Shown here: piece after piece, positions 1,396 through 17,612 of the stretch
Position numbering within the stretch: the stretch's first letter is position 1
Layout: every line of letters starts with the position of its first letter
Origin: Nitrososphaerota archaeon
GTDB taxonomy: Archaea; Thermoproteota; Nitrososphaeria_A; Caldarchaeales; Caldarchaeaceae
NCBI GenBank assembly: GCA_041641305.1
Contig: JBEPYN010000002.1
Span: 543,509 to 567,508 of the forward strand
Direction: 5' to 3'
Length of the DNA: 24,000 nt
Translations under genes and position numbers: made by a program
The notes under the pieces: generated by a model
What the model was told of the DNA's origin: nothing
What the model saw: only the letters and a program-made list of their open reading frames with translations
Databases searched by the model: none

Positions 1396-2357
1396 CTGAT
1401 AGATTCCTGAAAACCAGGTTGTATGTCCTAGCGGCGCTAGTAATAATATACATCGTGTTACCTCTTCCCTTCATCAACACGCCCTACGTGGTTTTCATAC
1501 TTGCGCAGATGACCTTCTTCACAGTATTCGCCTATAGCTTTAATTTCCTGTTCGGTTTCACGCGACAGCTCTTCCTCTGCGTCGGAGCCTTCGCAGGCAT
1601 AGGCGCATACATCACGGGGATAATGTTGAGGGATGGCTTAACCGGGCCAATCGAGGCTGTCGCTTTGTCAACGGTTGCAGTCGCCCTCATCGGCTGGGCT
1701 GTCAGCATTGTCTCCGTGAGACGCAGGCTCGTAGCAATCTTTACAGGAATTTTCACACTCGCCATCACACTCGTCTTCGGCAACCTCGTCACCGGTCTCG
1801 TGGAAGTAACTGGAGGAGAAACAGGCTTCAGGATAAGAGGAGTAAGCCTATTGTTTTTAGACACCATGCCATACTACATGAGATACTACTACATCGCTTT
1901 AGCTACGCTGCTGTCGGTCACTACAGTGGCTTTCTACCTCATCTATTACACGAAAACAGGCTACGCGTATAGATGCATTATAGACGATGAGCTGAGCGCG
2001 GAGCTGGTCGGCATAAACGTGCAGAGGGTTAAGACTTTGACGGCCTTGCTTGCATCAGCTTTGCTCGGTTTTTCCGGGGCGTTGTACGGCCTTTTCTCAC
2101 AGCTCATTTCACCATCCTATTACGCCTTTGGCTCCATAGACCTGCCCGTCCAAATAATAGTGATTCTCGGCGGCAGAACCTCTCTCCTCGGCCCGTACAT
2201 AGGCTCAGCCATAATAGCGGTCGTCAACGAGTCTCTAAGGTTTCTTGGACCACTTACCCAGCTCCTATATGGTCTGATTCTGATGCTTCTTCTCGCCTTC
2301 TTCCGAAATGGGATAGTTGACTTTGTGAAAAGAAAGGTTGCGCCGTGGTTCTATTAA
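1389..2357 (+). CDS. livM: Branched-chain amino acid ABC transporter permease (LivM-type)
   Basis: A 322-aa polytopic membrane protein. It is the second permease of the livF-livH-livM arrangement and overlaps livH (ATGGTGA). Confidence 0.8.
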   Translation: MVTDRFLKTRLYVLAALVIIYIVLPLPFINTPYVVFILAQMTFFTVFAYSFNFLFGFTRQLFLCVGAFAGIGAYITGIMLRDGLTGPIEAVALSTVAVALIGWAVSIVSVRRRLVAIFTGIFTLAITLVFGNLVTGLVEVTGGETGFRIRGVSLLFLDTMPYYMRYYYIALATLLSVTTVAFYLIYYTKTGYAYRCIIDDELSAELVGINVQRVKTLTALLASALLGFSGALYGLFSQLISPSYYAFGSIDLPVQIIVILGGRTSLLGPYIGSAIIAVVNESLRFLGPLTQLLYGLILMLLLAFFRNGIVDFVKRKVAPWFY

Positions 2358-2962
2358 CGGAGACCGTCCTCGCCCTTTACCTCCTCTTTACGTAGTCCAC
2401 CAATCCGTGGCAAAGGCCTCCCCGAGTCGGTTACAGCGGCAATCACAACTATTTCGTCGGGCAGAGGCGCGTCGGGAACACGTGCCTCGACAGCGTCATA
2501 GTGGCTTCTCACAAACGCAGCTCTCTTAAAGTGCAGGGGGACGTCGATTGCTGTGCCAGGGGCCCCTAGCTTAGCCGATGAAGGAATTATAGCTTTGCAT
2601 GCATCCTGTCCGCCGCATTCTTCCCGCAGTCCACGACCAAACTTAGGATGGAGAATAGCGTGGCCATGCTCAAGCTCTCCACCCAAACCGATTATCGCGG
2701 CTTTGCCGTAGCTCTCCACATCGGCTGGCGCAATTCCCAGCGCCTCCCGAGCCCTCTTCGCCAAAAATCCGCCCAAGAAATCTCCAGCATCTATGAGCAG
2801 CTGCAAATCCTCCACATATTTGCCGGCGTATGGGTTCTTGACCACAGCCGCGGCGGCGCTTTTTCTCACAGGCTTCTGCAAAACTTTCCCATTCTCCAGG
2901 AACACCTCATCAACATAGACAGCGACTTTACGTATAGCTACACCTGGTGCAGCCTCAAGCAT
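2354..2962 (-). CDS. Amino acid synthesis family protein (PF06684-like, function unknown)
   Basis: Sequence pattern VKNPYAGKYVEDL...LGGFLAKRAREALG recalled from the AA_synth family. The ATG at 2962 shares one base with the TGA of the upstream dehydrogenase (TGATG). An alternative GTG start lies at 2971. Confidence 0.6.
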   Translation of the reverse strand: MLEAAPGVAIRKVAVYVDEVFLENGKVLQKPVRKSAAAAVVKNPYAGKYVEDLQLLIDAGDFLGGFLAKRAREALGIAPADVESYGKAAIIGLGGELEHGHAILHPKFGRGLREECGGQDACKAIIPSSAKLGAPGTAIDVPLHFKRAAFVRSHYDAVEARVPDAPLPDEIVVIAAVTDSGRPLPRIGGLRKEEVKGEDGLR

Positions 2963-4404
2963 CACCACCACCTCGTCGTCACAATCTTGTGGTCTGTAAA
3001 GAATCTTATGGTGTCGACGCGGCTATGAGCTGTTCCGAAGAAGGATTGCTTCCTTCCACCGAGAGGAAAGTAGGCCATGGGCTGTGGGACACCTATGTTT
3101 ACACCCACGTTTCCAACGTTAACATCAAGCACAAACCTGCGTGCTGTGTTCGGGTTTGATGTGAAGATAGAGGCGGCGTTGCCGTAGGGAGTGTTTCTGT
3201 TTATCAGATCGATTGCCTCGTCCAAGCTCTCCGCATAAAGAACCGATACGACGGGGCCGAATATCTCCTCCTTTGCTAGTGGGGAGCTGGGAGACACGTC
3301 TGTGAAAACTGTTGGGCCCACGAAGTAGCCGTTCAAAGGCTTAAGCGGCTTGTTCTTCCTTCCGTCGACGAGAAGCCTCCCAAATTCTTCACCAAGCTCG
3401 ATATATTTCCAAACTCTCTCCAACCCAGCCCTTGAAGCCATCGGGCCCATCTCGGTCTCCTTATCCATGCCGTATCCAAGCCTAAGCATGGACTTGTCCC
3501 GCACCAAGTCGACAACCTTCTCACCCCCCTTTACCACGACAAGGTTGGAGCCGGCCAGACAACGTTGACCAGACATTCCGAAAAAGGATGACACAGCAGC
3601 ATCAGCGGCCTTGACAAAATCTGTGTCAGGCATTACAACAAGGTGGTTTTTGGCACCGGCGTTTATAGACGCGCGTTTCCCCTCTTTCGCGGCCAGCTCA
3701 TACAGAAACTTTCCTGTCTTCGTTGAACCTATGAAACCCACGCCCTGTATATCAGGATGTCTAGCCAGCTTCTCCGCAACTCTACCGTCACCGTGGACAA
3801 CCGACATTACACCCGCAGGAACACCGGCCTCCTTCACAATCCTGGCCACCTCGTTCGCGACAACAGGTGTCACCTCACTCGGCTTAAGCACAACAGTGGC
3901 GCCAAGGGCTATGGCGTAGGGCACGTATGAGGACCATGCGTGCAGCGGAATGTTGAAAGGAGTTATCACGGCAAAGCATCCAAGCGGCTCTCGGATAAGC
4001 TCCTGATCTATGTCTGGGGATATGTTGACCATTTTCTCGCCCTTAGCCAAGGTGTAGGCGAGCGCAGCCGCTGCCTCGACGTTTTCCAGACTCCGTTTAA
4101 CCTCTCCCACCGCCTCCGCATAGGTTCTTCCATGGTTGTCGACAAGTATTCTCGAAAGCAGCTCGGTATCCCTGTTCATCAGCTCACGGATCTTCAACAG
4201 GTAGGCGACCCTTTCCGAGGGTGTAGTTTTCCGAAACTTTTCAAAAGCGGCTACACCTGCCTCAACGGCTTTAGCAACCTCTTCCTCAGTGCTGACGGGG
4301 ACGTAGGCGATGTCTGTGTCAAAAGCAGGGTTCTTTACCGGAATCCTCTCAGAAGACTTCGACTCAACAAACTGCCCAGCAATGAAGTTAGGTAGTAAAC
4401 TCAT
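2962..4404 (-). CDS. mmsA: Aldehyde dehydrogenase, methylmalonate-semialdehyde dehydrogenase-like
   Basis: A 480-aa ALDH-fold protein with catalytic Cys context FFGMSGQRCLA and EEIFGPV. NAGAKNH replaces the usual ELGGK box, which is a hallmark of CoA-acylating MMSDH. Confidence 0.8.
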   Translation of the reverse strand: MSLLPNFIAGQFVESKSSERIPVKNPAFDTDIAYVPVSTEEEVAKAVEAGVAAFEKFRKTTPSERVAYLLKIRELMNRDTELLSRILVDNHGRTYAEAVGEVKRSLENVEAAAALAYTLAKGEKMVNISPDIDQELIREPLGCFAVITPFNIPLHAWSSYVPYAIALGATVVLKPSEVTPVVANEVARIVKEAGVPAGVMSVVHGDGRVAEKLARHPDIQGVGFIGSTKTGKFLYELAAKEGKRASINAGAKNHLVVMPDTDFVKAADAAVSSFFGMSGQRCLAGSNLVVVKGGEKVVDLVRDKSMLRLGYGMDKETEMGPMASRAGLERVWKYIELGEEFGRLLVDGRKNKPLKPLNGYFVGPTVFTDVSPSSPLAKEEIFGPVVSVLYAESLDEAIDLINRNTPYGNAASIFTSNPNTARRFVLDVNVGNVGVNIGVPQPMAYFPLGGRKQSFFGTAHSRVDTIRFFTDHKIVTTRWW

Positions 4405-4441
4405 GACTTTTTCCTCATATAGCGGTATTTTAAACGTGAAT

Positions 4442-4873
4442 CTACTTGCCTGAAATGAGGACGAGCGCTGTGAGGGCGAGGGCTACGCCGACAATCTGCC
4501 TAATGGTCAACACCTCTCCGAATAACAGGAAAGATAGAATCAGTGTGACAAGCGGGTACAGCGATGTGGCGACTACGACTATGGAGGATGGGTTCAGGTC
4601 TAGGGCCAGATAAAATGTCACGGCTCCGAGAAATCCCAGGGCCCCTGCGAGAAGTGCGGCCACCCAGGCCTGATTGGTCGGAGTTACATGAGCCCTCGAG
4701 CTGATTATGAACATCAGAGAGACTATCATGTGCCCTATGGCTGCGACCGCAGCATTGTCACGCCATCCAAGTGCCGATGCTCCCACACGTGCCACAACAC
4801 CCCAGACCCCCCAGATAAACAGCGTCAACAAAACCAACGCAACCCATCTAACCTCCATGGCGATAGATGGCAT
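4442..4873 (-). CDS. Small DMT/EamA-like membrane protein
   Basis: 143 aa with 4-5 predicted hydrophobic helices, the size and pattern of a single EamA domain. An alternative start lies at M6 (4858). The 5' coding end is G+T rich. Confidence 0.6.
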   Translation of the reverse strand: MPSIAMEVRWVALVLLTLFIWGVWGVVARVGASALGWRDNAAVAAIGHMIVSLMFIISSRAHVTPTNQAWVAALLAGALGFLGAVTFYLALDLNPSSIVVVATSLYPLVTLILSFLLFGEVLTIRQIVGVALALTALVLISGK

Positions 4874-4942
4874 ATCACCGGTTCATACCTTTTTCGGTGA
4901 AGAAGCTCAACAACTAAATCTCGGCAGAAAAACGGATAACCC

Positions 4943-5191
4943 ATGAACGTGAGAATAGTATACTGTGTTCCATGCGGCCATCTACCTAATGCTCTCGAGC
5001 TCGCTAAAGACCTTCTCAGCCGATACGGGCAAAGGCTCAACAAGAAATTCTCAGTCACTCTCGACACAAGCGACGGAGGAACCTTCGAAGTCTACATAGA
5101 AGGGGAGAAAATCTTCTCACGCCACGAGGCGCGGCGGTTCCCAACACCTGACGAAATCGCGGGGCAGATTGAAAAGAGGCTTAATGGTTGA
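4943..5191 (+). CDS. Rdx (SelW/SelT/SelH-like) thioredoxin-fold redox protein, Cys form
   Basis: 82 aa. The N-terminal IVYCVPCGH motif (CxxC) followed by GGTFEVYIEGEKIFSRHEARRFP matches the Rdx family pattern. A TAAAT-type element lies about 25-30 nt upstream. Confidence 0.7.
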   Translation: MNVRIVYCVPCGHLPNALELAKDLLSRYGQRLNKKFSVTLDTSDGGTFEVYIEGEKIFSRHEARRFPTPDEIAGQIEKRLNG

Positions 5192-5466
5192 ACCTTCGCC
5201 TAATAGTCTTCGTTGTCGCATGGTCTGCAGCGACCATAGCAGCCCTCACAATCGGACAGCTCTATGAATGGCCAGACAATGTACACATCCGCTATGGCAT
5301 ACCTCTGACCTATGCTGTTCACACCGTCGTCACGATATTGGGAGCTGCTGACCACTGGAGTGTGGACACAAACATTCTCGCCTTTGACTTGGCGATATGG
5401 ATGGCAGGCCTCGTGACCGGAGTAGCTCTGCTATCGAGGCAGAAGACAAGAGATGGACATACCTAG
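5188..5466 (+). CDS. Small hypothetical membrane protein
   Basis: 92-aa ORF with 2-3 hydrophobic segments. Its TTG start overlaps the Rdx stop (TTGA). No recognisable motif. Confidence 0.45.
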   Translation: MNLRLIVFVVAWSAATIAALTIGQLYEWPDNVHIRYGIPLTYAVHTVVTILGAADHWSVDTNILAFDLAIWMAGLVTGVALLSRQKTRDGHT

Positions 5467-5478
5467 CGTAGTGGTAGG

Positions 5479-5997
5479 TCATTTTACTATTTTGAGACGC
5501 GCTGGTGCTGGCGACCTCTCAGGCAATAGCCTTATTCCTTCGTGACGTAGAAGCCAAGCCTTAACGTTCTCGTCACCCCCGTAGCGTCCGATTGAGCCGT
5601 CGGATTTCACTACTCGGTGGCAAGGTATAATTATTGGAACAGGGTTGCGGGCGACCGCGTTTCCAACAGCTCTGTACGCTTTTGGACTGCCCACAGAAGC
5701 AGCCACGTCTCTATAGCTCCGCGTCTCCCCAAAAGGGATGGAGGCGACAACGTTCAACACCTTCCCCGCGAAACCAGAGACACGGAGGTCAATCGGTACA
5801 TTAAAGACCCGCCTTACACCCTCGAAATACTCCCCAAGCTGTCTCTTAACCAAACCATTAACCTCTCCAGCGCCGTCGCCAACTATGAAACCCTCTCTAA
5901 CGAGGCCCTTAACCAAAGCATTCAAACCCACACCCCACACCACCCTAAAAACACCACGCCTCGTAGAAGCAAAACAAACCAAACCAACAGGCGACAT
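5479..5997 (-). CDS. ogt: Methylated-DNA--protein-cysteine methyltransferase (O6-alkylguanine-DNA alkyltransferase)
   Basis: Active-site motif IIPCHRVV and YGGDENVKAWLLRHEG in the C-terminal domain. The start is set at the ATG at 5997 (MSPVGLV...). The ORF stays open to a TTG at 6054 only because the tract lacks A on this strand. Confidence 0.85.
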   Translation of the reverse strand: MSPVGLVCFASTRRGVFRVVWGVGLNALVKGLVREGFIVGDGAGEVNGLVKRQLGEYFEGVRRVFNVPIDLRVSGFAGKVLNVVASIPFGETRSYRDVAASVGSPKAYRAVGNAVARNPVPIIIPCHRVVKSDGSIGRYGGDENVKAWLLRHEGIRLLPERSPAPARLKIVK

Positions 5998-6054
5998 CAA
6001 ACAACCCACCGAAACAACCTCTCCCACAAAAACCACATAAACAAAACCAACCAA
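5923..6054 (-). other. Strand-asymmetric G+T-rich tract (C+A on + strand) covering the ogt 5' region
   Basis: By hand count, 15 of 132 positions on the + strand are not C or A. The sub-tract 6001-6054 has 4 of 54 and 5923-5960 has 2 of 38. Confidence 0.8.
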
Positions 6055-6249
6055 TATGCTTTAACCCAGCTCCATTTTTCCAAACAGATGCGTCGAAAAC
6101 ATGACTAAATTTTCCCGGTCCATTAACAAAATGAACCATAAGCATGCACAAAATAATTGAATTCGCGAGATTGTGGCTGGGCCGCTTGTTAGATGTTGCG
6201 GTTGAAACATTCTTATTAAACATCGTATACAACATATTGGGGTAACCCC

Positions 6250-7050
6250 ATGTCTTCAACCCCTTTAACCGACCTAATTTCTCTGAAAGGTAGAAAAGCG
6301 TTGGTTACTGGGGCTGCTTCAGGGATAGGGCGGTCGGTCTCTGAGAGGTTTGCAGAAGCCGGCGCCAGCCTAGTTCTTGTGGACATCAACGAGCCCGCCC
6401 TAACGAGCGTCGCCTCATTTATTAGAGATGGATATGGGGTTGAGGTTGAGGCGAAAAAAGTAGACCTGTCCAAGAAGAGGGAGATAGACGAGCTATGGTC
6501 CGGCTTGAAGGAGCGGGCTCCAGACATTCTGGTTAATAACGCGGGCATATACGAGTTCCGAGACTTCTTAGAAGTTGATGAGGATTTCCTTGAGAGAACC
6601 CTCGATGTGAACTTGAAGTCCGCGTTTTACATGTGCCAGCACATGTTTAGGACGCGTGGTGATAGGGGTGGTGTGATAGTAAACGTCAGCTCCATCGAGG
6701 CCGTCCTCCATCTCGTCAAAGGCCTGACCCACTACGGCGTGAGCAAAATTGGCCTCGTCGCACTGACCAGGGCTCTGGCACGTGAATATGGAGGAAAGGG
6801 CTTCAGGGTCAACGCCGTTATGCCCGGAGGAATTCATACACCCGGCACAGATAAGGTCAGGAACGAAGCCCTCAAAAGACTCCAGCTCGGATTCTTCATC
6901 ACAGGTATGAATTTCATATCCAGAATACCCTTGAAAAGGCTGGGAGAACCAGACGAAGTGGCAAGGGCTATACTTTTCCTAGCCTCAGACCTATCAAGCT
7001 ACGTGAACGGTGCAGTACTAGTCGTAGACGGCGGATACCTAACAGACTGA
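6250..7050 (+). CDS. Short-chain dehydrogenase/reductase (SDR) family oxidoreductase
   Basis: Has TGAASGIGRS (TGxxxGxG), NNAG, the catalytic YGVSKIGLVALTRALA (YxxxK) and PGGIHTP. TTATTAAA at 6213-6220 lies about 33 nt upstream of the ATG. Confidence 0.85.
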   Translation: MSSTPLTDLISLKGRKALVTGAASGIGRSVSERFAEAGASLVLVDINEPALTSVASFIRDGYGVEVEAKKVDLSKKREIDELWSGLKERAPDILVNNAGIYEFRDFLEVDEDFLERTLDVNLKSAFYMCQHMFRTRGDRGGVIVNVSSIEAVLHLVKGLTHYGVSKIGLVALTRALAREYGGKGFRVNAVMPGGIHTPGTDKVRNEALKRLQLGFFITGMNFISRIPLKRLGEPDEVARAILFLASDLSSYVNGAVLVVDGGYLTD

Positions 7051-7080
7051 GAACCTCTCGACCATGGGCCGATGTATCAG

Positions 7081-7140
7081 TCTGGGAAAAACTAGGCTTC
7101 GCACACCAGAGATATGAGGGTTCAAACCCCTTCCCACCAG
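7081..7140 (+). pseudogene. tRNA-like 3' remnant (anticodon-stem 3' strand, variable loop, T arm, acceptor 3' strand)
   Basis: CCAGA-GATAT-GAGGG-TTCAAAC-CCCTT-CCCACCA-G has the exact spacing of tRNA positions 39-73 with a TTCAAAC T-loop. TCTGG at 7081-7085 can pair with CCAGA. There is no matching 5' acceptor strand (TGGTGGG) and no D arm upstream. A T6 run lies at 7158-7163. Confidence 0.5.
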
Positions 7141-7521
7141 AAAAATATTCTTATGTGTTTTTTCGGCATGGTTTAGTGTTTGAGTATCTTGTTTGCATCT
7201 AATGCGTGCGATAGAAGAAATATGCCGCAAGGAGAAAATTTCAGAGGAAATTATCACGTCTCTAACTCGGAGTTTCCGTGATGAATACTAGTGCCATCGG
7301 CATCTTGGACCAACCATCCCTCCTAGACAACCCTTCAAAGCTATTGTTGACAGTGCATGTAGTGTGTGCGTATTGGGTGGTTGTGCTTAGGTCTTACACT
7401 CCGCCTAATTCCTTAACGGCACAACAAAGGCCAAAGGTATACCCAAAAACTCACAAAAATCTATTGAGAGCTAAAGGATTTATGTCTGTGCTTCTATTGT
7501 AACTTAAATGCGGTGTGGTAG

Positions 7522-9399
7522 ATGGGGGTTATCGTCTGCGTCGGTAGAAAAGGTAATGTAAAGAAATCTATTATCGATGGAGTTCATTTGAGTGATTTAA
7601 GGATTGCTGATGAAGCGCTAGTTAGAGAATTAAGTAGCAAGCATCCAGACGGGTTTGTCCGGATGTGGGGGTTCAAGGAGAAAGTGCGTTATCTTTGGAG
7701 ACGCGCCCGTTTGAGCAAATATGCCCTATTTACTTATCACCCCCGGCAAGCATTGTATGCAGGTAAAATATCCCTTGTTTATCCTTTTAATGAAGACGAT
7801 GAAAAACAGCTAGAAGTCAGTACCATAATATCCACCGATGTTTGGGGGAGAGACCTTGATGGACAGACTTGGAAGTATCTCGTATTTCTTAGTGATGTGA
7901 GAGAGGTTTTACTGGGTGTAGAGACTTTGAATGATTTGACGGGGTATAAGCTACATGTCTTTCGAAACTCTTTTTACATTACCGACAACAAAGCTATGAG
8001 ACTTGAACAGTTTCTAAATCGCTACTTAGAGGAATCCGTCGAACCTTCTCGTAAAATTACGCCTTTTCAGTTAGCGCGGGAGCGACTTCGCTCACTGTTT
8101 GGAATAATGACTCCCAAGTCAGAAGACTCCTCGTTTTTACCGTCTTCAGCCACGCCATATGAGCGGATGAGAAATTTACGAATCCCTGCTAAAGAGGAAT
8201 CGATAGGCACACCGTCCCGAATGATTCGAGACATCGCCGACGCAGAGACATTAAGTGAGGACGCGGAGGTTAAGAGATTAGATGAAGAGTTCATCAACTA
8301 TTTGGATTCGTTGCTAGTGGACCGACTCGAGGAAACAATAAAATTCGGGAAATGGTTATCCGTGTCAACCCTAACTCAATACTATTTTGATTTGTTCGGG
8401 CCAGAAATATTTTTCGATCACATGCTTGCTATTAGTCAGCAATATTCAATATGCGAAACAGAAATTGTGAGCGAGGAGGGCTCATCTAAAATGACAACCG
8501 GTTTTAATTTGGCACTTTTCGGTGAGCCTGGAACTGGAAAGTCATTTACCTCTAGAGACATGATTCTCGGTAGTGAAGATAAAGGCATACCACCCCACGG
8601 AATCCCGGGCCGTAACAGATACTGTGGAGGCATGACTCCCGCAAAGTTCATAGAGGTCGGTCAAGCATATGAAAACAAAAAATTCAATTTCATAGTAACA
8701 GAGTTTAACGACTGGTTCAAATACAGGGGAATGGTGGAGCCGCTTAAGTTAGCCATGGAAAGGGGTTCTATACGGTATGAGACTAAGAGATATACTGTTG
8801 GTCCGTACCGCTTCACCTCCTTCTTTAGCGTGAATTATAATACGCGAGTTTATGACAAAGGATACGGAGTCACTGTGTCGGACCCGAATTTTAACGCTAT
8901 AGAAGACAGGATGTTATGCAGGTTACATAGATTGACCAAAGCAAAATATCAAGAATTGGCAAAAAGTCAGCGAGAAATGATGTTGGGCAAAATGCAATCT
9001 AAGATGAAAATGTTTGCGCCCCGGCTTAGAGATCATTTGACGTTATGTTACGCTATTCAGACACGGAATACTAAAGTAAATAAAACCTTCTCGGAAAAGA
9101 GGGTCTTGCTGACTAAAAACTTGTTTGATATGCTTGATAAGGCCAGAGATTTAGTTTTGGAAAACCTGAGAACAGGAATAGTCCCTTTCTCGGCGAGGCT
9201 AGAAAGCAGAGCTGTTCAATTGGCTTCTGCCATGTCGCTGATGAACTATTTTAATAGGGAGCACTATATTATATCGGTAGATAATATTGCTGCTAAAATG
9301 GCGACTAGATTTTTTGTAGAAGAAGCATGGATCAGGTCAGGCGAGACATTTCCGATCCGTGAAGTCATCAGAAAACTTGACCTAGAATTTATAGACTAA
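7522..9399 (+). CDS. Large AAA+ NTPase with unrecognised N-terminal domain (MCM/BrxL/McrB-style ATPase core)
   Basis: 625 aa. It has Walker A GEPGTGKS (nt 8521-8544), Walker B-like FIVTEFND (8689-8712), AMERGSIRYE (8752-8781), sensor-1-like FFSVNYN (8821-8841) and the Arg-finger candidate IEDRM (8899-8913). Codon composition is low-GC, unlike the neighbouring genes. Confidence 0.75.
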   Translation: MGVIVCVGRKGNVKKSIIDGVHLSDLRIADEALVRELSSKHPDGFVRMWGFKEKVRYLWRRARLSKYALFTYHPRQALYAGKISLVYPFNEDDEKQLEVSTIISTDVWGRDLDGQTWKYLVFLSDVREVLLGVETLNDLTGYKLHVFRNSFYITDNKAMRLEQFLNRYLEESVEPSRKITPFQLARERLRSLFGIMTPKSEDSSFLPSSATPYERMRNLRIPAKEESIGTPSRMIRDIADAETLSEDAEVKRLDEEFINYLDSLLVDRLEETIKFGKWLSVSTLTQYYFDLFGPEIFFDHMLAISQQYSICETEIVSEEGSSKMTTGFNLALFGEPGTGKSFTSRDMILGSEDKGIPPHGIPGRNRYCGGMTPAKFIEVGQAYENKKFNFIVTEFNDWFKYRGMVEPLKLAMERGSIRYETKRYTVGPYRFTSFFSVNYNTRVYDKGYGVTVSDPNFNAIEDRMLCRLHRLTKAKYQELAKSQREMMLGKMQSKMKMFAPRLRDHLTLCYAIQTRNTKVNKTFSEKRVLLTKNLFDMLDKARDLVLENLRTGIVPFSARLESRAVQLASAMSLMNYFNREHYIISVDNIAAKMATRFFVEEAWIRSGETFPIREVIRKLDLEFID

Positions 9400-9641
9400 G
9401 AGACAAAGATAAAAGCTCCGGCTGGAAAACGGTCGAAGGACCCGAGAACCGGAAAACCATTCAAGACCAAGAAACGACTAAACCATGAGCAAGAAGTCTA
9501 ACGGTTTTTTATGAAAGTTGAGTTCACAATAGAAACGAAACCACAGCCTCTCGAAGACATGACGCCGCCGCAAGCCAACACTTTCTCCATTCTTCCTTAG
9601 TCGTACAGAACCTCTAGGCTCTATCACAAAGTAATTAAATG

Positions 9642-9736
9642 TGCCCCGGGGCGGACTTGAACCGCCGACATCCCGGTCTTCAGCCGGGCGATAGAGGAAA
9701 CTTTTGTTTCTCTCTCCCAGTCTGAGCTACCGGGGC
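9642..9736 (-). tRNA. tRNA-Phe (anticodon GAA) with a 21-nt non-canonical intron in the D arm
   Basis: The reverse complement reads GCCCCGG-TA-GCTC-AGACTGGGA-GAG[intron]C-G-CCCGG-CTGAAGA-CCGGG-ATGTC-GGCGG-TTCAAGT-CCGCC-CCGGGGC-A. The anticodon is at 9679-9681. Removing the intron restores the GCTC/GAGC D stem and gives a 74-nt mature sequence without CCA. Confidence 0.85.
9691..9711 (-). other. tRNA-Phe intron (AGAAACAAAAGTTTCCTCTAT) within the 3' strand of the D stem
   Basis: This 21-nt insertion interrupts an otherwise canonical GCTCAGACTGGGAGAGC D arm. Together with flanking exon bases it can form the hairpin AGAG-A-GAAAC/AAAA/GTTTC-CTCT. Confidence 0.7.
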
Positions 9737-9760
9737 GCGGTATGAGTTTTTCATGGCTTG

Positions 9761-9766
9761 ATTTAA
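9761..9766 (-). promoter_or_regulatory. TATA box for tRNA-Phe
   Basis: TTAAAT on the - strand lies 25-30 nt upstream of tRNA +1 (9736). Confidence 0.55.
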
Positions 9767-9823
9767 GGTGTTTGCTGTTTTGTGTTTTTATGTAGGTTGT
9801 TTGGTTTAGGGTGGGGTTGGTGT
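9767..9823 (+). other. Strand-asymmetric G+T-rich tract at the 5' end of the 9811 gene
   Basis: By hand count, only 4 of 57 positions are not G or T (C at 9775; A at 9790, 9794 and 9808). The bias continues at about 73% G+T through 9900. Confidence 0.8.
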
Positions 9824-10350
9824 CTAAGCAGCCTGTGGCGGCGGGGAGGTTTGTTAAAGGCTATGTTTCGGGTTTTGTGGCTAGGGTTGTTTCCGATGGT
9901 ATTGTTTACTTCTTTACTTTGTCTACGCTTGAGGGTGAGGATGTGGTTTTCAGGATGCGGCAGCCCCCTGAATGGGTGTATACAGGCACGCCGGTGGAGG
10001 GGCTGTTGGTGAAGGCTGACGACGTTTACCAGATTCAGGACCTTTCTCAAGCGGCTGAGCTCGCTCAGCCACGTGTCGTCGAGGTCGACCGATGCGATGT
10101 AACCTACGTAGGCACGGGCTCTGCGAAGAAACCTGTTGTCACTGGGTCAGCGGGTAGGATGGTGATTTCCGCGCCGGCGATAAGCATGGGTGTGGCGAGA
10201 AAAGCTGAGAAAATAGGATACACAAAATGTGTGTTGCATGTGGCTGACTTGGCGACGGGGGCGAGAATAGTGGCGGTCCAAACACCTCAAGAACACAGAC
10301 GAGACACCTCCATGAAGAAAGTGATAACTATGCTGAGTCATGGCGATTAG
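9811..10350 (+). CDS. Hypothetical protein, possibly with a beta-barrel/OB-like N-terminal half
   Basis: 179-aa ORF with a GTG start. The stop lies 3 nt before the topoisomerase ATG. The alternating hydrophobic pattern GRFVKGYVSGFVARVVSDGIVYFFTLSTLEGEDVVFRM is only suggestive of an OB-like barrel. The start codon is uncertain because the A-poor tract is open in several frames. Confidence 0.5.
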   Translation: MGLVSKQPVAAGRFVKGYVSGFVARVVSDGIVYFFTLSTLEGEDVVFRMRQPPEWVYTGTPVEGLLVKADDVYQIQDLSQAAELAQPRVVEVDRCDVTYVGTGSAKKPVVTGSAGRMVISAPAISMGVARKAEKIGYTKCVLHVADLATGARIVAVQTPQEHRRDTSMKKVITMLSHGD

Positions 10351-10353
10351 TAG

Positions 10354-12156
10354 ATGACTTTGGACAAAGGTGCGATGGGTGGAGAGAAGCTGATTATAGT
10401 GGCCGAGAAGGCCAGCGTTGCTAGGGCGATAAAGGCGGTGGTCGCCGCAGCCAAGGCCAACGCCGTGGTCTCATCCGTTAGAGGCCACATGATGGAGGCT
10501 GATCTGCCGGATGGCTACGAATGGGGTGCAAAGCATCCTCTAGAGATTATCAAGCTGAGGAAAGTTGTTGACAAAATTTCGGACAACCGTGTGTTTGAGC
10601 AGCTGGTCAAAGTTTTCAGCGGGGGAGGCTTGCTCGTTATAGCGACGGACAACGACTCCGAGGGAGAGCTCATCGGCTATGAAATTCTACAGGTTTACCG
10701 CCGTGTCAGGGGCGGCGAACCCGTTGTCTTCAGGATGCGTTTTAACTCTGTTGACCGCCGTGAGCTCTTCGCAAGCTTACGGAACCTCGAGAAAGGGCTT
10801 AACATGCGCTGGGTTGAGAAGGCGCGTTTCCGCCAAATCTTCGACTTGGTCACAGGAGCCGCATTCACGCGGTTGCTTACGCTGTCTACTCGAAGGCTTG
10901 CACCTGTCAGGGTGATTAGCTGGGGCTCATGCCAAACACCAACTCTAAACTTCGTCGTCGAAAGAGAGAAAGAAATACAGCGGTTCAAACCGCAAAAATA
11001 CTGGGTTCTAGAAGCCACTCTGAGAACTGCAGGCGGAGAAGAGTTCAAGGCTGCGACGCAGCAGATATGGAGCAGGGAGAAGGCGGAGCAGGCTTTTGAG
11101 AAGGCTCGGAAAGCTGGTGAGGCTGTTGTCACAGCCTACAGCAAGGCTGAGAAAACCCTGCCAAGGCCGCTTCCGATGAGGACCGACGACGTTCTCAGGG
11201 ATTTGACGAGGATAACGGGGGTTTCGGCTAACAGGCTGCTGGCCATGATGGAGGAGCTTTACGCCGAGGGCTACATCAGCTATCCACGCACCGACACCAA
11301 CAGGTATAGACGCGGCTTCGACTTCCAAACACCTCTCAACGCCGTAACGGCCGCAGATGCCCTGCGGGACGCGAAACCAGATAAATCAGAACCCGTTCCA
11401 AGAAACGGGTCAAGAGACGATGGAGCTCATCCGCCCATTTACCCTGTGGCCACCTACCGCGGCACCGGTGTTTTAATGCAAATATGGGAATACATAGCCC
11501 GGCGCTTCTACGCCAACGCCTTCTTCGACGACGCTGTTCAGTCAACCTCAAGGGCCGAAATAGACATAGATGAGTTAACATTTTCAGCCGAGGGCTCGAC
11601 GACCACAAAACAAGGTTACCTACAGGTCTTCACATATTTCCGGCCCCGCGATAAGCCACTTCCGGAGCTCATGGTGGGTGAAAAGCTTCGGATAATCGAC
11701 GTGGCTATTCGGGAGGATGAGACAAAGCCTCCGCCACGCCTGACCGAGGCCGACCTCCTGAAACTGATGGAGAAAAACGGTATAGGAACCGATGCAACAC
11801 GCGCATCCTTCCCTCAGCTGATAACTGAGCGCAACTACGCCGTGAGGGTTGGCAGGGTTTTCAAGCCGACGCCTCTGGGAATGGCGTTGATCGAGGCTTT
11901 AGCCGAGGCAGATACACGGCTTGTAACACCTGAGACGAGGCGGCTTGTCGAAGACTATATGGCGAAAATCGAGCGCGGGGAAACAGGGTTTGAAGAAAGC
12001 CTTGAGCAAAGCCTCCGACTCTACGAGGAGCTTCTCAAGAGATGCAGCGATAAAATAGATGAGATCAGCAGTAGCCTCGCCCAACACATCAAACCCATGG
12101 CTCGAAAGAAAGCGGCTAAAAAGAAACATGATGGATTCACAAACCTTAATAAATAA
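10354..12156 (+). CDS. topA: DNA topoisomerase, type IA (topoisomerase III-like), lacking C-terminal zinc fingers
   Basis: TOPRIM elements LIIVAEKASVARAI and IATDNDSEGELIGYEI are present. It also has CQTPTLNFVVERE, the active-site Tyr context EGYISYPRTDT (Tyr codon 11281-11283) and GIGTDATRA. The C-terminal tail ARKKAAKKKH is Lys-rich. Confidence 0.9.
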   Translation: MTLDKGAMGGEKLIIVAEKASVARAIKAVVAAAKANAVVSSVRGHMMEADLPDGYEWGAKHPLEIIKLRKVVDKISDNRVFEQLVKVFSGGGLLVIATDNDSEGELIGYEILQVYRRVRGGEPVVFRMRFNSVDRRELFASLRNLEKGLNMRWVEKARFRQIFDLVTGAAFTRLLTLSTRRLAPVRVISWGSCQTPTLNFVVEREKEIQRFKPQKYWVLEATLRTAGGEEFKAATQQIWSREKAEQAFEKARKAGEAVVTAYSKAEKTLPRPLPMRTDDVLRDLTRITGVSANRLLAMMEELYAEGYISYPRTDTNRYRRGFDFQTPLNAVTAADALRDAKPDKSEPVPRNGSRDDGAHPPIYPVATYRGTGVLMQIWEYIARRFYANAFFDDAVQSTSRAEIDIDELTFSAEGSTTTKQGYLQVFTYFRPRDKPLPELMVGEKLRIIDVAIREDETKPPPRLTEADLLKLMEKNGIGTDATRASFPQLITERNYAVRVGRVFKPTPLGMALIEALAEADTRLVTPETRRLVEDYMAKIERGETGFEESLEQSLRLYEELLKRCSDKIDEISSSLAQHIKPMARKKAAKKKHDGFTNLNK

Positions 12157-12179
12157 ATAATGTTGAGACGTGCTGAGAG

Positions 12180-13328
12180 ATGGTTGTGCTGTTTGCCGCG
12201 TTTCTGAACCCGTCGTCAGGTGGAGACAATATCCTATCCCTATTGCTGTCGCTTGTATGGTTTGCTTTTTTGATGATTTTCTTCCTTTATCCATCGTTTG
12301 GTCAGCGTATGCAGCTCTCTTACATGCTTCGAGACCTTGAGAGGAAGTTGAACAAGCTCAAGCTCATCAAGGACGAGATTAACCAGATAACTGTTGAGAC
12401 AATTAAGCGGGTTGGTAAGCCTGAGAAAGACCCCGCGCCCGACATAAACAGGCTGAGCGAGTTCTTCGTAATCCAGCCCGAATCAATGGACCCCTATGGC
12501 TTGGTCTACAAACTGGAGCATATTCTCGAGACAGGGGAATCGGTGTATGAGGAGGAGGTGGCTAAGCTGGCGCCCCATGCGACAGAGCATCAGGTCAAGT
12601 CTTTGACAAACCTTGTAGAAGTTCTCCGCGGGATCAACACAATATACCGCGTCGTCCGCCACTACTACCTGCTGGGTAAAAAGACCGCCAACATCTACAT
12701 GGTTCTACAGATACAGATGATTCTGCCGCAGATAATAGAGATAGCCGAGTCCTATAGGCAGGCGGCTGTCGCCTTCAGCAAGGGGCAGCCGATAGGCGAC
12801 GGTGTTGGCCCGCTTGTTGCCGCGAAGCTTGTGGATGGTTCGGAGAAAGATAGGTATGAGATTGCTAAGGACACGGTTGTTCAGGAGATTGAGCTGGATA
12901 ACAGGAGGGTCTATGTTGTCAGGGCCATTGGGCCGGGTGGAACGGTGGGAAGACCCGGGGAAGGCGTCAAACAGCTTGTTGAGAGGCTCGGTGAAAACCC
13001 GAAGCTCATTATAACCATCGATGCGGCCCTCAAGCTTGAGGGGGAGGAGACGGGTAAAATCGCCGAAGGAGTGGGTGTAGCGATAGGGGGGCCTGGTGTT
13101 GACAAGTATAAGATAGAGGAGCTGGCGAAGAGCCGCGGCATTCCGCTATATGCCTTCGTCATCTTCCAATCCATCACAGAGGCCATAACACCCATGCGTG
13201 AATCCATCGCCAAAGCTGCTGACCAAGTGCTTGAGAAAGTTAAGCAGCTGATTCTGGAAAAAGTGAAGAGCGGCGAGTCCGTGATAGTCGCAGGCATCGG
13301 TAACACCATCGGGGTGGGCTTGGGATGA
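12180..13328 (+). CDS. Membrane-anchored conserved archaeal protein (DUF1512-like, function unknown)
   Basis: 382 aa with an N-terminal TM helix LSLLLSLVWFAFLMIFFLYP, then a coiled-coil-like segment and a Gly-rich globular C-terminal half. The family name is recalled from memory and not verified. Confidence 0.6.
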   Translation: MVVLFAAFLNPSSGGDNILSLLLSLVWFAFLMIFFLYPSFGQRMQLSYMLRDLERKLNKLKLIKDEINQITVETIKRVGKPEKDPAPDINRLSEFFVIQPESMDPYGLVYKLEHILETGESVYEEEVAKLAPHATEHQVKSLTNLVEVLRGINTIYRVVRHYYLLGKKTANIYMVLQIQMILPQIIEIAESYRQAAVAFSKGQPIGDGVGPLVAAKLVDGSEKDRYEIAKDTVVQEIELDNRRVYVVRAIGPGGTVGRPGEGVKQLVERLGENPKLIITIDAALKLEGEETGKIAEGVGVAIGGPGVDKYKIEELAKSRGIPLYAFVIFQSITEAITPMRESIAKAADQVLEKVKQLILEKVKSGESVIVAGIGNTIGVGLG

Positions 13329-13546
13329 GCGAGCCATCAATTGTATTAGGTGGACGATCAAGAGAGAAGACACCGGAGCCTCTTACGTTCCTCAAATGCC
13401 TCAGCTGCGGTGTCGAGAACTCGAGACCATTCAGAGAAAATGACTATGTTTTGAAGATTGTTGAGGATGAGAAATGTCCCAAATGCGGCGGCACTCGAAG
13501 CAAGATTGTGAACATCTACGTGCCCGAGAAGAAGATGTCTAAGTAA
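13325..13546 (+). CDS. Small zinc-ribbon protein
   Basis: 73 aa with CLSC...CPKC (two CxxC pairs). Its ATG overlaps the stop of the upstream gene (ATGA). Confidence 0.6.
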   Translation: MSEPSIVLGGRSREKTPEPLTFLKCLSCGVENSRPFRENDYVLKIVEDEKCPKCGGTRSKIVNIYVPEKKMSK

Positions 13547-14441
13547 TCACCGTGCAGCCGTCCTTTTCCACCAAAACAGTGTGCTCGGCCTGCGCCACCG
13601 GCTTATTCAGCCTCTCAACGAGCACAGGATAGGCCTTAACCCTGCCGGTTTTGACCAGCCTTTCATGGACGGAAATGGTTTCATGTCCCAAGTCTGTAAG
13701 CCATCGCAGGCTGTAGGGGAGGCCGTCGAACCTCTCGGATAAGGTCTTCAAGAGGTTGGACTCGGGGGTGGATGCTTGGCCGGTGAAGGGCTTGCCCAGC
13801 CTGAATATTGTCGCGTTTCTATGCTCAACTACTTCTCCGAAGCCGTCGGCGACTGTTGCGAAAGGCTCTATCGCGTATATGTGGCCTTCTTGAAGCTTGG
13901 CCCCGTCTCCTGCAGCTATGTTGGGTATTGAGACGCCTGCGTGAAGGTTGTATCGCTGAATCTCATGGCCTGTGAGGTTGCGTATAGGCTTCACACCATA
14001 ACGGGTCAAAACGTTCTGCACCGCCGCCCCGACCGCGGAGACCTTTACACCCGCGGACACAGTTTTCACAGCAGCTTTCAAAGCCTCTTCAACAGCTGTC
14101 TTCAACATTTCACCAACCGCGGTGTCGGTGACTGTTACAGCGGTGTCGGCGATGTATCCATCCAACAGTACACCGAAATCAATTTTCGCAACAAAATTTC
14201 TATGCAGAGTTGAGGTGTCGCCTGGAGGAGGAGAATAATGTGCCGCAACACCGTCTACGGAGATGTTGCATGGGAAAGCAGGCTTGCAGCCACTGTCAAA
14301 AATCATGTTCTCTATCTTCTCCGCTATCTGCAGCAGACTAACACCCGGAGAGACGATTAAGGGCACAGCTGCTCTGATGCGTCTCGCAACCTCCCCAGCT
14401 GTGAACAACGCATCCAGCCCAGACAACCCGTTACACAGCAT
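13539..14441 (-). CDS. map: Methionine aminopeptidase, type 2 (archaeal)
   Basis: Metal-ligand contexts AHYSPPPGD, KIDFGVLLDGYIADTAVTV, GHEIQRYNLHAG, YAIEPFAT and AQAEHTVLV are typical of archaeal MetAP. Confidence 0.9.
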   Translation of the reverse strand: MLCNGLSGLDALFTAGEVARRIRAAVPLIVSPGVSLLQIAEKIENMIFDSGCKPAFPCNISVDGVAAHYSPPPGDTSTLHRNFVAKIDFGVLLDGYIADTAVTVTDTAVGEMLKTAVEEALKAAVKTVSAGVKVSAVGAAVQNVLTRYGVKPIRNLTGHEIQRYNLHAGVSIPNIAAGDGAKLQEGHIYAIEPFATVADGFGEVVEHRNATIFRLGKPFTGQASTPESNLLKTLSERFDGLPYSLRWLTDLGHETISVHERLVKTGRVKAYPVLVERLNKPVAQAEHTVLVEKDGCTVIT

Positions 14442-14474
14442 CCTGATCCAGGTTATTTACCCTAGCGCCAGCCG

Positions 14475-15242
14475 CTACTTTTTCTGACCCGTGCGCATTT
14501 TTTCCACAAGCTCAGATATCTTGGTGTTCAGCTCAGCCACGAGCTCGTTTCTCAGCTCAGGCTGGGCCACTAGGATAACAACCTCGAGCACAGCCTCGTT
14601 TTGTCCACGCTCCTTAACGGATACAATCGGTGGAAACCTTTGGTCAAGCTTGCCTCTGTACTTGTTGCAGAGCTTGAGTATCTCGGTCTCAGCATGTGGT
14701 ATACTCACGCCCTGTGGAATATGGACAGTCAAAGTGGCTCTCCGCGGAGCGATTGGGGAGAGGTTTAGAGATATTTCTTTGAGTAGAACGGAGTTGGGGA
14801 CGACTGCTACGGAACCTTCTTCTAGGATTAGGAGCGATGCGACTGGGTTGATTTCGACCACCTTGCCCCTGAAGCTGGAGACCTGAATTTCGTCTCCCAC
14901 GTTGATGGGTATGAAGCTTCCAATCAGATATCTCGAGGAGATGTTGCTGAGAATGTCGCGGACCGCAATAATAGCTGCCACGCCAGCCAGTCCTATGAGT
15001 AGAAAAAGAACGTCGAGGTTGAGTCCAAGCTGGTTAACGATGAACAGCAGCCCTACCAGCCAGATAAAAATCGAGACACCTCTGGTTATCTGCTCGTTCA
15101 GCAGCGGGGGTGCTCTGAACAACAGTCTGCGAAGAATCGATGAGGCTATACGCGCTACGAGAGCTGTGACAAGAAGCATGATCGCTACAATGGCCAATTG
15201 TAGAGTTATCGCTGTGAGCTCGGGAAGCTCCGCCAAAATCAT
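14475..15242 (-). CDS. Small-conductance mechanosensitive channel (MscS family)
   Basis: Three N-terminal TM helices are followed by the beta-domain pattern PINVGDEIQVSSFRGKVVEINPVASLLILEEGSVAVVPNSVLL. Its ATG overlaps the stop of the upstream glycosyltransferase (ATGA). Confidence 0.8.
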   Translation of the reverse strand: MILAELPELTAITLQLAIVAIMLLVTALVARIASSILRRLLFRAPPLLNEQITRGVSIFIWLVGLLFIVNQLGLNLDVLFLLIGLAGVAAIIAVRDILSNISSRYLIGSFIPINVGDEIQVSSFRGKVVEINPVASLLILEEGSVAVVPNSVLLKEISLNLSPIAPRRATLTVHIPQGVSIPHAETEILKLCNKYRGKLDQRFPPIVSVKERGQNEAVLEVVILVAQPELRNELVAELNTKISELVEKMRTGQKK

Positions 15243-16588: not shown

Positions 16589-16652
16589 ACATTCTTCAGC
16601 ATCATCCGACCCCTTTATACATTATCTAGTCAACCTTTCTCGAACATATGTT

Positions 16653-16726
16653 TGCGGCCGGCGGGATTTGAACCCGCGACTACCAGCGTGGAAGGCTGGT
16701 GTCCTACCAGGCTAGACCACGGCCGC
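16653..16726 (-). tRNA. tRNA-Gly (anticodon UCC)
   Basis: The reverse complement reads GCGGCCG-TG-GTCT-AGCCTGGTA-GGAC-A-CCAGC-CTTCCAC-GCTGG-TAGTC-GCGGG-TTCAAAT-CCCGC-CGGCCGC-A, a full 74-nt cloverleaf. Confidence 0.9.
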
Positions 16727-17478: not shown

Positions 17479-17502
17479 CCCTCGGCGAGATGGGGAATAA
17501 GC

Positions 17503-17512
17503 ATATAAATAT
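17503..17512. promoter_or_regulatory. Near-palindromic TATA element, candidate bidirectional promoter for tRNA-Met (+) and MOSC (-)
   Basis: ATATAAATAT is centred about 30 nt from tRNA-Met +1 (17538) and about 30 nt from the MOSC TTG (17478) on the opposite strand. Confidence 0.5.
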
Positions 17513-17537
17513 TCTTCACCACCCCTACACATGGAAC

Positions 17538-17612
17538 GCCGGGGTAACTCAGCCTGGCCAGAGTGCGGGGCTCATAATCCCGTTGTCGTGGGTTCGAATC
17601 CCACCCCCGGCA
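17538..17612 (+). tRNA. tRNA with CAU anticodon (elongator Met or Ile2; not the initiator)
   Basis: Reads GCCGGGG-TA-ACTC-AGCCTGGCCA-GAGT-G-CGGGG-CTCATAA-TCCCG-TTGTC-GTGGG-TTCGAAT-CCCAC-CCCCGGC-A (75 nt). The G1:C72 pair argues against the archaeal initiator, which has A1:U72. Confidence 0.85.

Follow-up and report, generated by a model that had tools for sequence, protein, structure and literature searches.

Among described defence systems, those closest to the gene considered here are the Type IV restriction system McrBC and bacteriophage exclusion (BREX). In McrB from T. gammatolerans (TgMcrB), the N-terminal domain has a YTH fold that targets N6-methyladenine (6mA) DNA (PMC7680126, PMC7897488, PMC12707154), and modification-dependent enzymes are usually found without an accompanying methyltransferase and with a patchy distribution (PMC7897488). 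BrxL of BREX is an AAA+ defence factor of the MCM family that has no nuclease and acts together with the methyltransferase PglX, and in type-4 BREX it lacks the C-terminal Lon-like extension (PMC10164562, PMC12839542). Archaeal immunity is poorly charted, and here we describe a single gene that brings elements reminiscent of both systems together. The gene lies at positions 7522..9399 on the positive strand of a 24,000-nucleotide stretch of a Nitrososphaerota archaeon genome (contig JBEPYN010000002.1; hereafter the window) and encodes a protein of 625 aa, in which a reader domain homologous to that of TgMcrB is followed by a linker and an AAA+ core of MCM-like fold. It thereby joins a well-understood sensor of modified DNA to a conserved MCM-like ATPase family that has no description in curated libraries and that recurs beside Type IIG or PglX-like methyltransferases.

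Overall Layout of the Protein

The open reading frame (ORF) runs from an ATG start to a TAA stop, and both it and all of the motifs quoted in the first-pass annotation, which had been made from the letters alone, are present where that annotation placed them. The AlphaFold2 (AF2) model consists of a compact N-terminal domain (aa 1-170), a disordered stretch (aa ~171-240) and a confident core (aa 240-620, predicted local distance difference test score (pLDDT) >90), in agreement with the three-part layout first proposed. The linker had been described as acidic; the disordered segment (aa 171-240, nt 8032..8241, pLDDT <50) is instead rich in Ser, Pro and Arg with a net charge of +2, and the acidic patch (aa ~240-262) corresponds to the helix with which the conserved core begins. 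Library searches had been suggested for the three sections of the protein; run on these and on the whole protein, searches against Pfam, PADLOC, NCBIfam, PHROGs and PDB sequences gave only P-loop-level or sub-threshold matches. Weak PADLOC matches of the protein to SIR2 (E 0.007) and mad8 (E 0.014) were not reproduced in the relatives P0004 and P0083 and were dropped; the MADS paper contains nothing informative on mad8.

The N-Terminal Reader Domain

A word-based homology search with residues 1-215 returned no relatives; phmmer, run exhaustively against 1.84 billion cluster representatives, recovered 62, 19 of them at E<=1e-10, with a best identity of 40%. The region shared with these proteins corresponds to residues 1-170 (nt 7522..8031) and is nearly always N-terminal in them. 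It contains the segments VRMWGFKEK (aa 46-54), YALFTY...VYPF (aa 67-89) and VWGRDLDGQTWKYLVFLSDVREV (aa 107-129), and the alignment of the family (A4) shows conservation of W49, G50, W59, D66, W108, W117 and G141. The four conserved tryptophans are compatible with an aromatic pocket, which would accommodate a modified base.

The A4 profile matched the PDB entries 6P0F and 6P0G (E=1.2e-7, profile positions 9-159, spanning the whole domain) and 6UT5 (E=2e-6), all named 'GTPase subunit of restriction endonuclease', of which 6P0G is a DNA complex. Structure prediction and a Foldseek search of this domain, recommended at the outset, led to the same protein: an AF2 model of residues 1-180 built from its own alignment (pLDDT 95) had as its best PDB match TgMcrB's N-terminal domain (6p0g/6p0f, E ~1e-6, template modelling score 0.60-0.63), followed by YTH domains (Mmi1, YTHDF), the EVE protein PH1033, ASCH domains and VcaM4I. 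The protein by itself matched no EVE or YTH model of Pfam. The domain at residues 1-170 is a PUA domain of YTH/EVE type and a homologue of the N-terminal DNA reader of TgMcrB, and the early impression of a PUA-superfamily (EVE/ASCH-like) N-terminus was therefore well founded.

Elsewhere this reader is joined to McrB-type AAA_5 GTPases, to HNH or PD-(D/E)xK-like nucleases, or to STAND NTPases. A Pfam census of 47 reader relatives identified AAA_5 (9), HNH-type domains (3, 3 and 1), nSTAND3 (4), NACHT (1), NOV_C (1) and EVE (3). Six longer relatives have the reader followed by AAA_5, the McrB architecture (P0124, P0135, P0138, P0148, P0150 and P0152); the AAA_5 matches of P0124, P0135 and other reader relatives range from 1e-13 to 1e-18, and P0124 is encoded in a two-gene arrangement like that of McrBC, next to a SNF2/NOV_C helicase. 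The literature on this reader type reports the same partners as those found here and does not mention a fusion to an MCM-like protein.

The closest reader relatives are proteins of 322 aa (P0186/P0121 type; L104/L105:6001-6969), 40% identical to the window protein. Their C-terminal half carries a 'YDVVW...FEVHVKG' motif that is D...E-x-K-like, and judging from this motif they are probably reader-nuclease Type IV enzymes. The genes sit in an integrase-bearing element crowded with small ORFs.

The MCM-Like ATPase Core and Its Family

The remainder of the protein belongs to a large family. At least 1351 proteins were recovered by homology search, and members with 50-69% identity are encoded at 354 loci of GTDB species genomes; each of the best 120 relatives aligns at E<1e-133 with 55-69% identity, covering the window protein from residue 207/250 to 620 only. 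Most loci are in Bathyarchaeia, with others in Nitrosocaldales, Thermofilaceae, Korarchaeota, Marsarchaeota, Desulfurococcales and further groups. Across 74 sequences approximately 80 core columns are invariant, and the window protein keeps every one. The term 'orphan' used in the first-pass annotation does not hold for either part, given these relatives of the core and the 62 of the reader; the combination alone is unique.

The conserved region opens with a family-conserved four-helix bundle ahead of the ATPase fold (aa 241-310, nt 8242..8451), supported by invariant columns and by AF2 helices at 241-267, 269-278, 281-292 and 297-309 (pLDDT >93). The AAA+ alpha/beta domain follows (aa 311-470, nt 8452..8931), its MCM-like fold assigned from Foldseek against the PDB and AF2 secondary structure. 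Within it are Walker A, GEPGTGKS (aa 334-341, nt 8521..8544), in which G334, G337, G339 and K340 are invariant in the family; GGMTPAKF (aa 369-376); Walker B, FIVTEFND (aa 390-397, nt 8689..8712), with invariant E394; and LKLAMERGSIRYETKRY (aa 408-424). AAA+ proteins usually have DE in Walker B, whereas this family has TE throughout, T393 standing in place of Asp. A beta-hairpin between Walker B and sensor 1 (aa 416-430, nt 8767..8811; AF2 strands at 416-420 and 425-430, with conserved E420, T421 and K422) would, from its position, be the pre-sensor-1 (PS1) hairpin. The motif FFSVNYN (aa 434-440) contains the sensor-1 region N438-Y439-N440 (nt 8833..8841), invariant in the family, as is R463 of IEDRM (aa 460-464; R463 at nt 8908..8910), a candidate arginine finger by its position and by analogy with the MCM SRF motif. 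A helical lid and C-terminal helices, assigned from AF2 and conservation, complete the protein (aa 471-625, nt 8932..9396) and include a sensor-2-like SARLESRA (aa 557-564, nt 9190-9213) with invariant R559.

A Foldseek search of the PDB with the core supports the MCM-style assignment made from its motif order: the top 50 matches are all MCM2-7 subunits (E 1.5e-9 to 3e-7, 339-447 aligned columns, 12-15% identity). The fold search of BFVD gave only generic helicase/primase AAA+ similarity. With hidden Markov models (HMMs), the protein itself matched neither the MCM model of Pfam nor the MCM sequences of the PDB, the core-family profile matched no MCM or BrxL among PDB sequences, and the family as a whole matched no model of Pfam, NCBIfam, PADLOC or PHROGs and none of 2.9 M viral contigs. 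The kinship with MCM is accordingly seen only at the level of predicted fold and motifs, and kinship in sequence with BrxL, MoxR and McrB, also put forward initially, is undetectable with HMMs. The window protein has, intact in residues 240-620, the core of an archaeal AAA+ family that is MCM-like in fold and very conserved, and no description of this family, or of its link to Type IIG methyltransferases presented below, was found in the literature.

Members of unusual length were noted. A contig binned as Dehalococcoidales encodes a 1095-aa member (L034:344-3631) in which the usual N-domain and core are followed by a helical C-terminal extension of ~480 aa without a Pfam match; the extension could be another functional module, or an archaeal contig could have been misbinned here. 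Members of 656-667 aa carry a C-terminal tail of ~80 aa (P0045, P0049, P0003, P0034, P0037, P0041, P0044, P0055, P0060 and P0064). In the two tails that were aligned, those of P0045 and P0049, a P/E/K-rich spacer precedes a conserved 'G-x-G-M-x-K-D-x-A-G-N-I-W-D-Y-R-x-G-P-D' motif, which could be a docking peptide.

Replacement of the N-Terminal Domain

The N-terminal ~200 aa of 111 core relatives form one family, marked by a segment resembling a winged helix-turn-helix (GKKGYALLKAL...ASEIYGEK), to which the window protein does not belong. A frameshift or misassembly behind its different N-terminus was ruled out, as no frame of the window encodes the usual N-domain. From approximately residue 207 the protein aligns with the tail of the usual N-region, and BLAST alignments to core relatives begin at its residues 207-250, placing the junction of the swap within the disordered segment at aa ~170-206. 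The fusion was found in none of the 120 best core relatives and in none of the 62 reader relatives; because no reader relative has an MCM-fold core, the fusion of the two is unique in the databases searched, and only the combination is unique. Two further core members, P0116 and P0102, have a different and short N-terminus, annotated in P0116 as zf-AN1 (PF01428), and N-terminal variation in the core family is therefore not limited to the window protein. This natural swap offers a functional hint for the whole family, in which the N-domain would be a targeting module and the core a DNA-directed effector.

A Single-Gene Insertion Beside tRNA-Phe

The gene occupies an inserted island of 2,506 bp (7127..9632), delimited by comparison with empty sites and by contrast in guanine-plus-cytosine (GC) content. 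Two metagenome contigs with the empty site were recovered using the flanking topoisomerase as a probe: L096 matches window positions 4094-7126 (87%) and 9633-11024 (88%), and L087 matches 5927-7126 (91%) and 9633-17612 (81%). In both, the spacer between the matching blocks is ~75 nt, versus 2,506 bp in the window. Because the contigs are collinear with the window on both sides with only this spacer between, 7127-9632 is, by comparison with two near relatives of the host, a genuine insertion of one gene next to a tRNA. Its actual left boundary may be nearer 7190, since the first ~60 nt align weakly with the empty-site spacer. The GC content of the island is 0.424, compared with 0.517 and 0.516 in the flanks, and the drop to 0.41-0.44 extends across 7001-9500 against ~0.52 around it. 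The view that this is the sole gene of an island of foreign composition by a tRNA is thus borne out, almost to the base pair.

Apart from the gene, the island consists of 395 nt upstream and 233 nt downstream of it. Its ends show no direct repeat of >=12 nt, no att site and no target-site duplication; no integrase was found in it and no gene remnants in its non-coding parts, and an Rfam scan matched only the tRNA. The site is occupied here and empty in close relatives, and its composition is deviant, as in a genomic island; the integrase and flanking att or direct repeats of an integrative mobile element were not found. The flanking genes are housekeeping in nature, encoding aldehyde dehydrogenase, EamA, Ogt and SDR proteins on one side and topoisomerase IA, DUF1512 and an M24 peptidase on the other. 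The window contains no gene for a methyltransferase or an integrase. It also has none for a nuclease or a McrC-like protein, and the protein has no Lon domain, in agreement with the first reading on these three points.

The right edge of the island abuts the 3′ end of a tRNA-Phe(GAA) gene on the negative strand (9641..9736), which has a non-canonical intron of 21 nt, placed between its D-arm and anticodon stem and also present in L096. The tRNA (anticodon loop CUGAAGA) was identified by Rfam alignment and by comparison with the 74-nt tRNA-Phe of L088, which rule out the label tRNA-Lys(ttt) given to 9641-9736 by ARAGORN. At the left edge, just past the SDR gene, the sequence GAGGGTTCAAACCCCTTCCCACCA (7113-7136, positive strand) resembles a tRNA T-arm and 3′ end, with no Rfam match; being partly conserved in L096 and L087, it predates the insertion. 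Beyond the tRNA, a 179-aa ORF without a Pfam match (9811-10350, positive strand) is conserved at the DNA level in L096, L087 and L098. It ends 4 nt ahead of the topoisomerase IA gene, a gap that suggests co-transcription of the two.

Genomic Context of the Core Family

The survey of homologue neighbourhoods for recurring partners, recommended in the first-pass annotation, covered the best 80 of the 354 loci; neighbouring ORFs were clustered and a neighbour-joining tree of the core was built. The tree has three clades that coincide with three kinds of gene context. The clade of the window protein is scattered over Korarchaeota, Desulfurococcales, Marsarchaeota, Bathyarchaeia, Micrarchaeota, Methanosarcinales and Thermofilaceae, and in 13 of its 18 informative loci a Type IIG or PglX-like methyltransferase adjoins the ATPase gene (L001, L002, L003, L005, L017, L025, L036, L039, L082, L083/84, L106, L107 and L108), an arrangement seen in neither of the other two clades. 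These methyltransferases, of 700-1130 aa, fall into three families; two score as Type IIG (PADLOC E=5e-95 and 2e-54; Pfam Eco57I and N6_Mtase) and the third is PglXI-like (E=1.5e-59). The methyltransferase gene often lies directly upstream of the ATPase gene with a gap of 0-11 nt, and is otherwise convergent downstream. The initial statement that the gene has no partner genes therefore stands for the window and not for the family, in which methyltransferases in this clade, usually adjacent or in an operon with the ATPase, and a coiled-coil or 130-aa protein elsewhere recur as neighbours.

A stand-alone EVE gene belongs to the same cluster at two loci, in the order EVE, ATPase and convergent downstream Type IIG in L002, and EVE, Type IIG and ATPase in L107. 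Homology of these EVE proteins to the reader of the window protein was considered and rejected, as only a short WG...GD...FY core aligns and the two are of different PUA branches. The parallel is suggestive and not proof, both for this reason and because stand-alone EVE genes are common companions of archaeal restriction-modification (RM) systems (PMC7641849). The Thermofilaceae copies lack a methyltransferase, and that of T. pendens lies among PIN and HepT/MNT toxin-antitoxin genes. Some close core relatives adjoin ribosomal-protein or NurA/HerA/Mre11/Rad50 operons.

The other two clades have stable contexts of their own. In the Bathyarchaeia clade a coiled-coil protein of ~548 aa is encoded directly upstream on the same strand in 44 of the 67 loci with enough flank, within the order NTP_transferase, small membrane protein, coiled-coil protein, ATPase, DUF1893 and M24 peptidase. 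The ~548-aa protein (L080:5952-7595; others in, for example, L024, L057 and L058) has a long central coiled coil, and its Pfam and PADLOC matches (ApoLp-III, ZorA) are at the level of noise. In the Nitrosocaldales clade a conserved 130-aa gene directly upstream of the ATPase replaces the coiled-coil gene (L056:6805-7197; L047, L050, L055, L066, L077 and L079). The 130-aa protein is Cys/His-rich (CRYHGNSECAH) and matches no family. One metagenome-assembled genome (JAWCEH01) contains both a methyltransferase-linked copy and a Bathyarchaeia-clade copy.

Further genes were observed at some of the methyltransferase-linked loci. Repeatedly, a small gene immediately precedes that of the Type IIG methyltransferase (L003:2452-2679, L036:3524-3757 and L039:1464-1748; 61-aa genes in L083, L084 and L106), and the products of those in L003, L036 and L039, of 75-94 aa, carry CxxC...CxxC zinc-ribbon motifs. 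The L083 island (996-9818, the same in L084) encodes an Orc1/Cdc6-type ATPase (AAA_22, Cdc6_lid, Cdc6_C), a PLD-family nuclease, the 61-aa protein, a Type IIG methyltransferase and the MCM-fold ATPase. Its two ATPases are reminiscent of the pairing of ORC-like BrxC with MCM-like BrxL noted for BREX (PMC10164562).

Proposed Function and Alternative Explanations

The reading that we favour, at about even confidence, is that the island encodes a chimeric, stand-alone defence-type protein produced by an N-domain swap, namely a nuclease-less, modification-dependent DNA-exclusion ATPase. Starting from the observed reader, domain swap and insertion, and from the methyltransferase linkage of the closest relatives, we infer a mechanism in which the protein would form a ring, by analogy with MCM and BrxL, and its reader domains would flip out and recognise a methylated base (of the 6mA or 5-methylcytosine type) on incoming DNA with a foreign modification pattern. 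Reader binding would tether the ATPase ring to the modified DNA, and ATP-driven loading or translocation could then block replication or transcription of the invader, or pass its DNA to an unlinked host nuclease. The logic would be that of a modification-dependent, Type IV-like counterpart of the relatives that work beside a methyltransferase, with reader and motor on a single polypeptide, which fits the absence of a methyltransferase from the island (compare PMC7897488). Of the two options suggested initially, a stand-alone defence gene or a replication protein of a dead element, defence is favoured, since the element option is opposed by the absence of viral-contig matches and of an integrase.

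Several points weigh against this proposal. The function of the protein, and of every member of the core family, is predicted from sequence, and the killing or exclusion step is pure inference because the island has no nuclease or other effector; the ring is assumed by analogy with MCM and BrxL. ATPase competence is likewise assumed, because Walker B has Thr for the canonical Asp. The core is unusually conserved for a defence gene, at 50-69% identity across phyla, and its synteny in Bathyarchaeia and Nitrosocaldales looks like that of housekeeping genes; together, high conservation and stable synteny in two clades suggest that at least some of its members have a cellular role. Because the fusion is a singleton, selection on it is not assessable. 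The EVE neighbours may belong with the methyltransferase and not with the ATPase, given how commonly such genes accompany RM systems in archaea. PUA and YTH domains can also read RNA.

These points bear on four other explanations. It is unlikely, if the most credible of the four, that the protein is a cellular DNA-transaction factor of Thermoproteota-type archaea, acting in replication, repair or chromatin, of which the window copy would be an accessory paralogue whose reader finds the host's own methylated DNA. The ~80 invariant columns, the MCM-like fold, the Bathyarchaeia synteny with its upstream coiled-coil gene (44 of 67 loci), the conserved 130-aa partner in Nitrosocaldales and the proximity of some close relatives to ribosomal-protein or NurA/HerA/Mre11/Rad50 operons would all suit such a role, however the window copy is a recent insertion missing from two close relatives and is therefore dispensable, its clade is spread across phyla and linked to Type IIG methyltransferases, the reader family otherwise occurs in McrB and nuclease fusions, and the T. 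pendens copy lies among toxin-antitoxin genes. An accidental, functionless recombination product, horizontally acquired and intact only through its youth, is improbable. Such a product would agree with a fusion found once among the 120 best core and 62 reader relatives, with an island lacking partner genes and with an unsampled donor (best identity 69% for the core and 40% for the reader). Its 625 codons are nonetheless intact, all core invariants and the conserved reader Trp, Gly and Asp residues are kept, and the junction lies within a disordered linker that retains the end of the usual N-region; both halves share an equally low GC content (0.41), so they would have coexisted in the donor for some time before transfer.

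The remaining two explanations change the substrate or the origin of the protein. In an RNA-directed system, which we consider highly improbable, the modified base that the reader recognises would be one in tRNA, rRNA or viral RNA, and the task of the ATPase would be to remodel an RNA-protein complex. YTH, EVE and ASCH domains, which come after the TgMcrB domain in the fold search, are known above all for reading modified RNA; the JGI name of one relative is 'predicted RNA-binding protein', and some McrB-derived systems are predicted to target RNA (PMC10542128). The closest solved relative, however, binds DNA (6P0G is a DNA complex, with 6mA DNA as the reported target of the domain, PMC7680126), the core is MCM-like, and the partners of the relatives are DNA methyltransferases. 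The most improbable of the explanations considered is that a plasmid or virus, integrated and since decayed, left its replicative helicase or initiator behind. The MCM-like fold and the low-GC island by a tRNA recall such elements, of which, in archaea, MCM genes are known cargo. Against this origin, the core family is unmatched in the 2.9 M viral contigs, the island lacks an integrase, att repeat and gene remnants, the empty site shows a clean one-gene insertion, the N-domain is a restriction-type reader rather than an origin binder or primase, and the family has stable chromosomal synteny in Bathyarchaeia.

Beyond the favoured reading of the window gene as a stand-alone DNA-exclusion ATPase, a broader possibility is offered only tentatively, at clearly less than even confidence. 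The MCM-fold core may be an undescribed and widespread archaeal DNA-exclusion motor, analogous to BrxL and with a swappable N-terminal targeting module. In the clade of the window protein it would mostly act together with a Type IIG or PglX-like methyltransferase, and sometimes EVE, as a compact system of two or three genes, and the window protein would be a one-polypeptide version retargeted to methylated DNA that restricts without a nuclease. The gene also supplies a simple one-gene construct for asking how an MCM/BrxL-type ring can exclude DNA without a nuclease, a question still open for BREX (PMC10164562).

Comparison with Known Systems

The order of domains in McrB of the McrBC system, and particularly in TgMcrB (6P0F, 6P0G and 6UT5), is that of the window protein: an N-terminal YTH-like PUA reader, a linker and an AAA+ motor, which in McrB is ring-forming. 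The readers are homologous, and many reader relatives are true McrB proteins in which this domain precedes AAA_5. The motors differ, however, as that of the window protein is not an AAA_5 GTPase (no AAA_5 match even at E<=10) and ranks in fold with MCM, and no McrC partner (DUF2357 with PD-(D/E)xK) accompanies it, the island having one gene and the flanks being housekeeping. The modification-dependent enzymes that join a PUA-superfamily domain to a nuclease, such as the EVE-HNH enzyme VcaM4I and YTH-PD(D/E)XK fusions, are likewise single polypeptides with an N-terminal sensor, no methyltransferase and a patchy distribution (PMC7897488, PMC7641849). The closest reader relatives, of the P0121 type, resemble them in their D...E-x-K-like C-terminal region, whereas the effector half of the window protein is an ATPase and not a nuclease.

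BrxL of BREX types 1 and 4 shares with the window protein a layout of a DNA-binding N-region and an MCM-family AAA+ domain without an active nuclease. PglX is found beside BrxL, and the nearest relatives of the window protein adjoin Type IIG or PglX-like methyltransferases, although the window itself has none. PADLOC BrxL models match neither the protein nor its relatives P0004 and P0083; it has no Lon or HKD domain, its C-terminus being a helical lid, and no BrxA, BrxB, BrxC or PglZ genes are present in the window or in the related loci inspected. The N-domains also differ, comprising helix-turn-helix and oligonucleotide-binding (OB) parts in BrxL, the PUA reader in the window protein and an uncharacterised 200-aa domain in the rest of the core family.

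The MCM replicative helicases are the best structural match to the core and have the same order of motifs: Walker A, a Walker B ending in EF-(D/N), AME-x-G-x-I, a pre-sensor-1 hairpin, Asn as sensor 1 followed by an Arg finger, and a sensor-2-like R-x-LE in the lid. The window protein differs from them in being undetected by MCM HMMs at an identity of 12-15%, in having a PUA domain instead of the OB-fold/Zn-finger N-terminal domain, in showing no obvious helix-2 insert (helix 373-383 is uninterrupted in the model) and in its Walker B, which is TE and not DE. It is not a canonical MCM, because it has neither the OB/Zn N-domain nor a sequence-level match. The protein is thus likened to McrB for its reader and AAA+ motor and to BrxL for its MCM-fold ATPase and methylation-based defence, and belongs to neither; the architecture, which was found nowhere else, combines a known reader with an archaeal ATPase family that is both widespread and undescribed.

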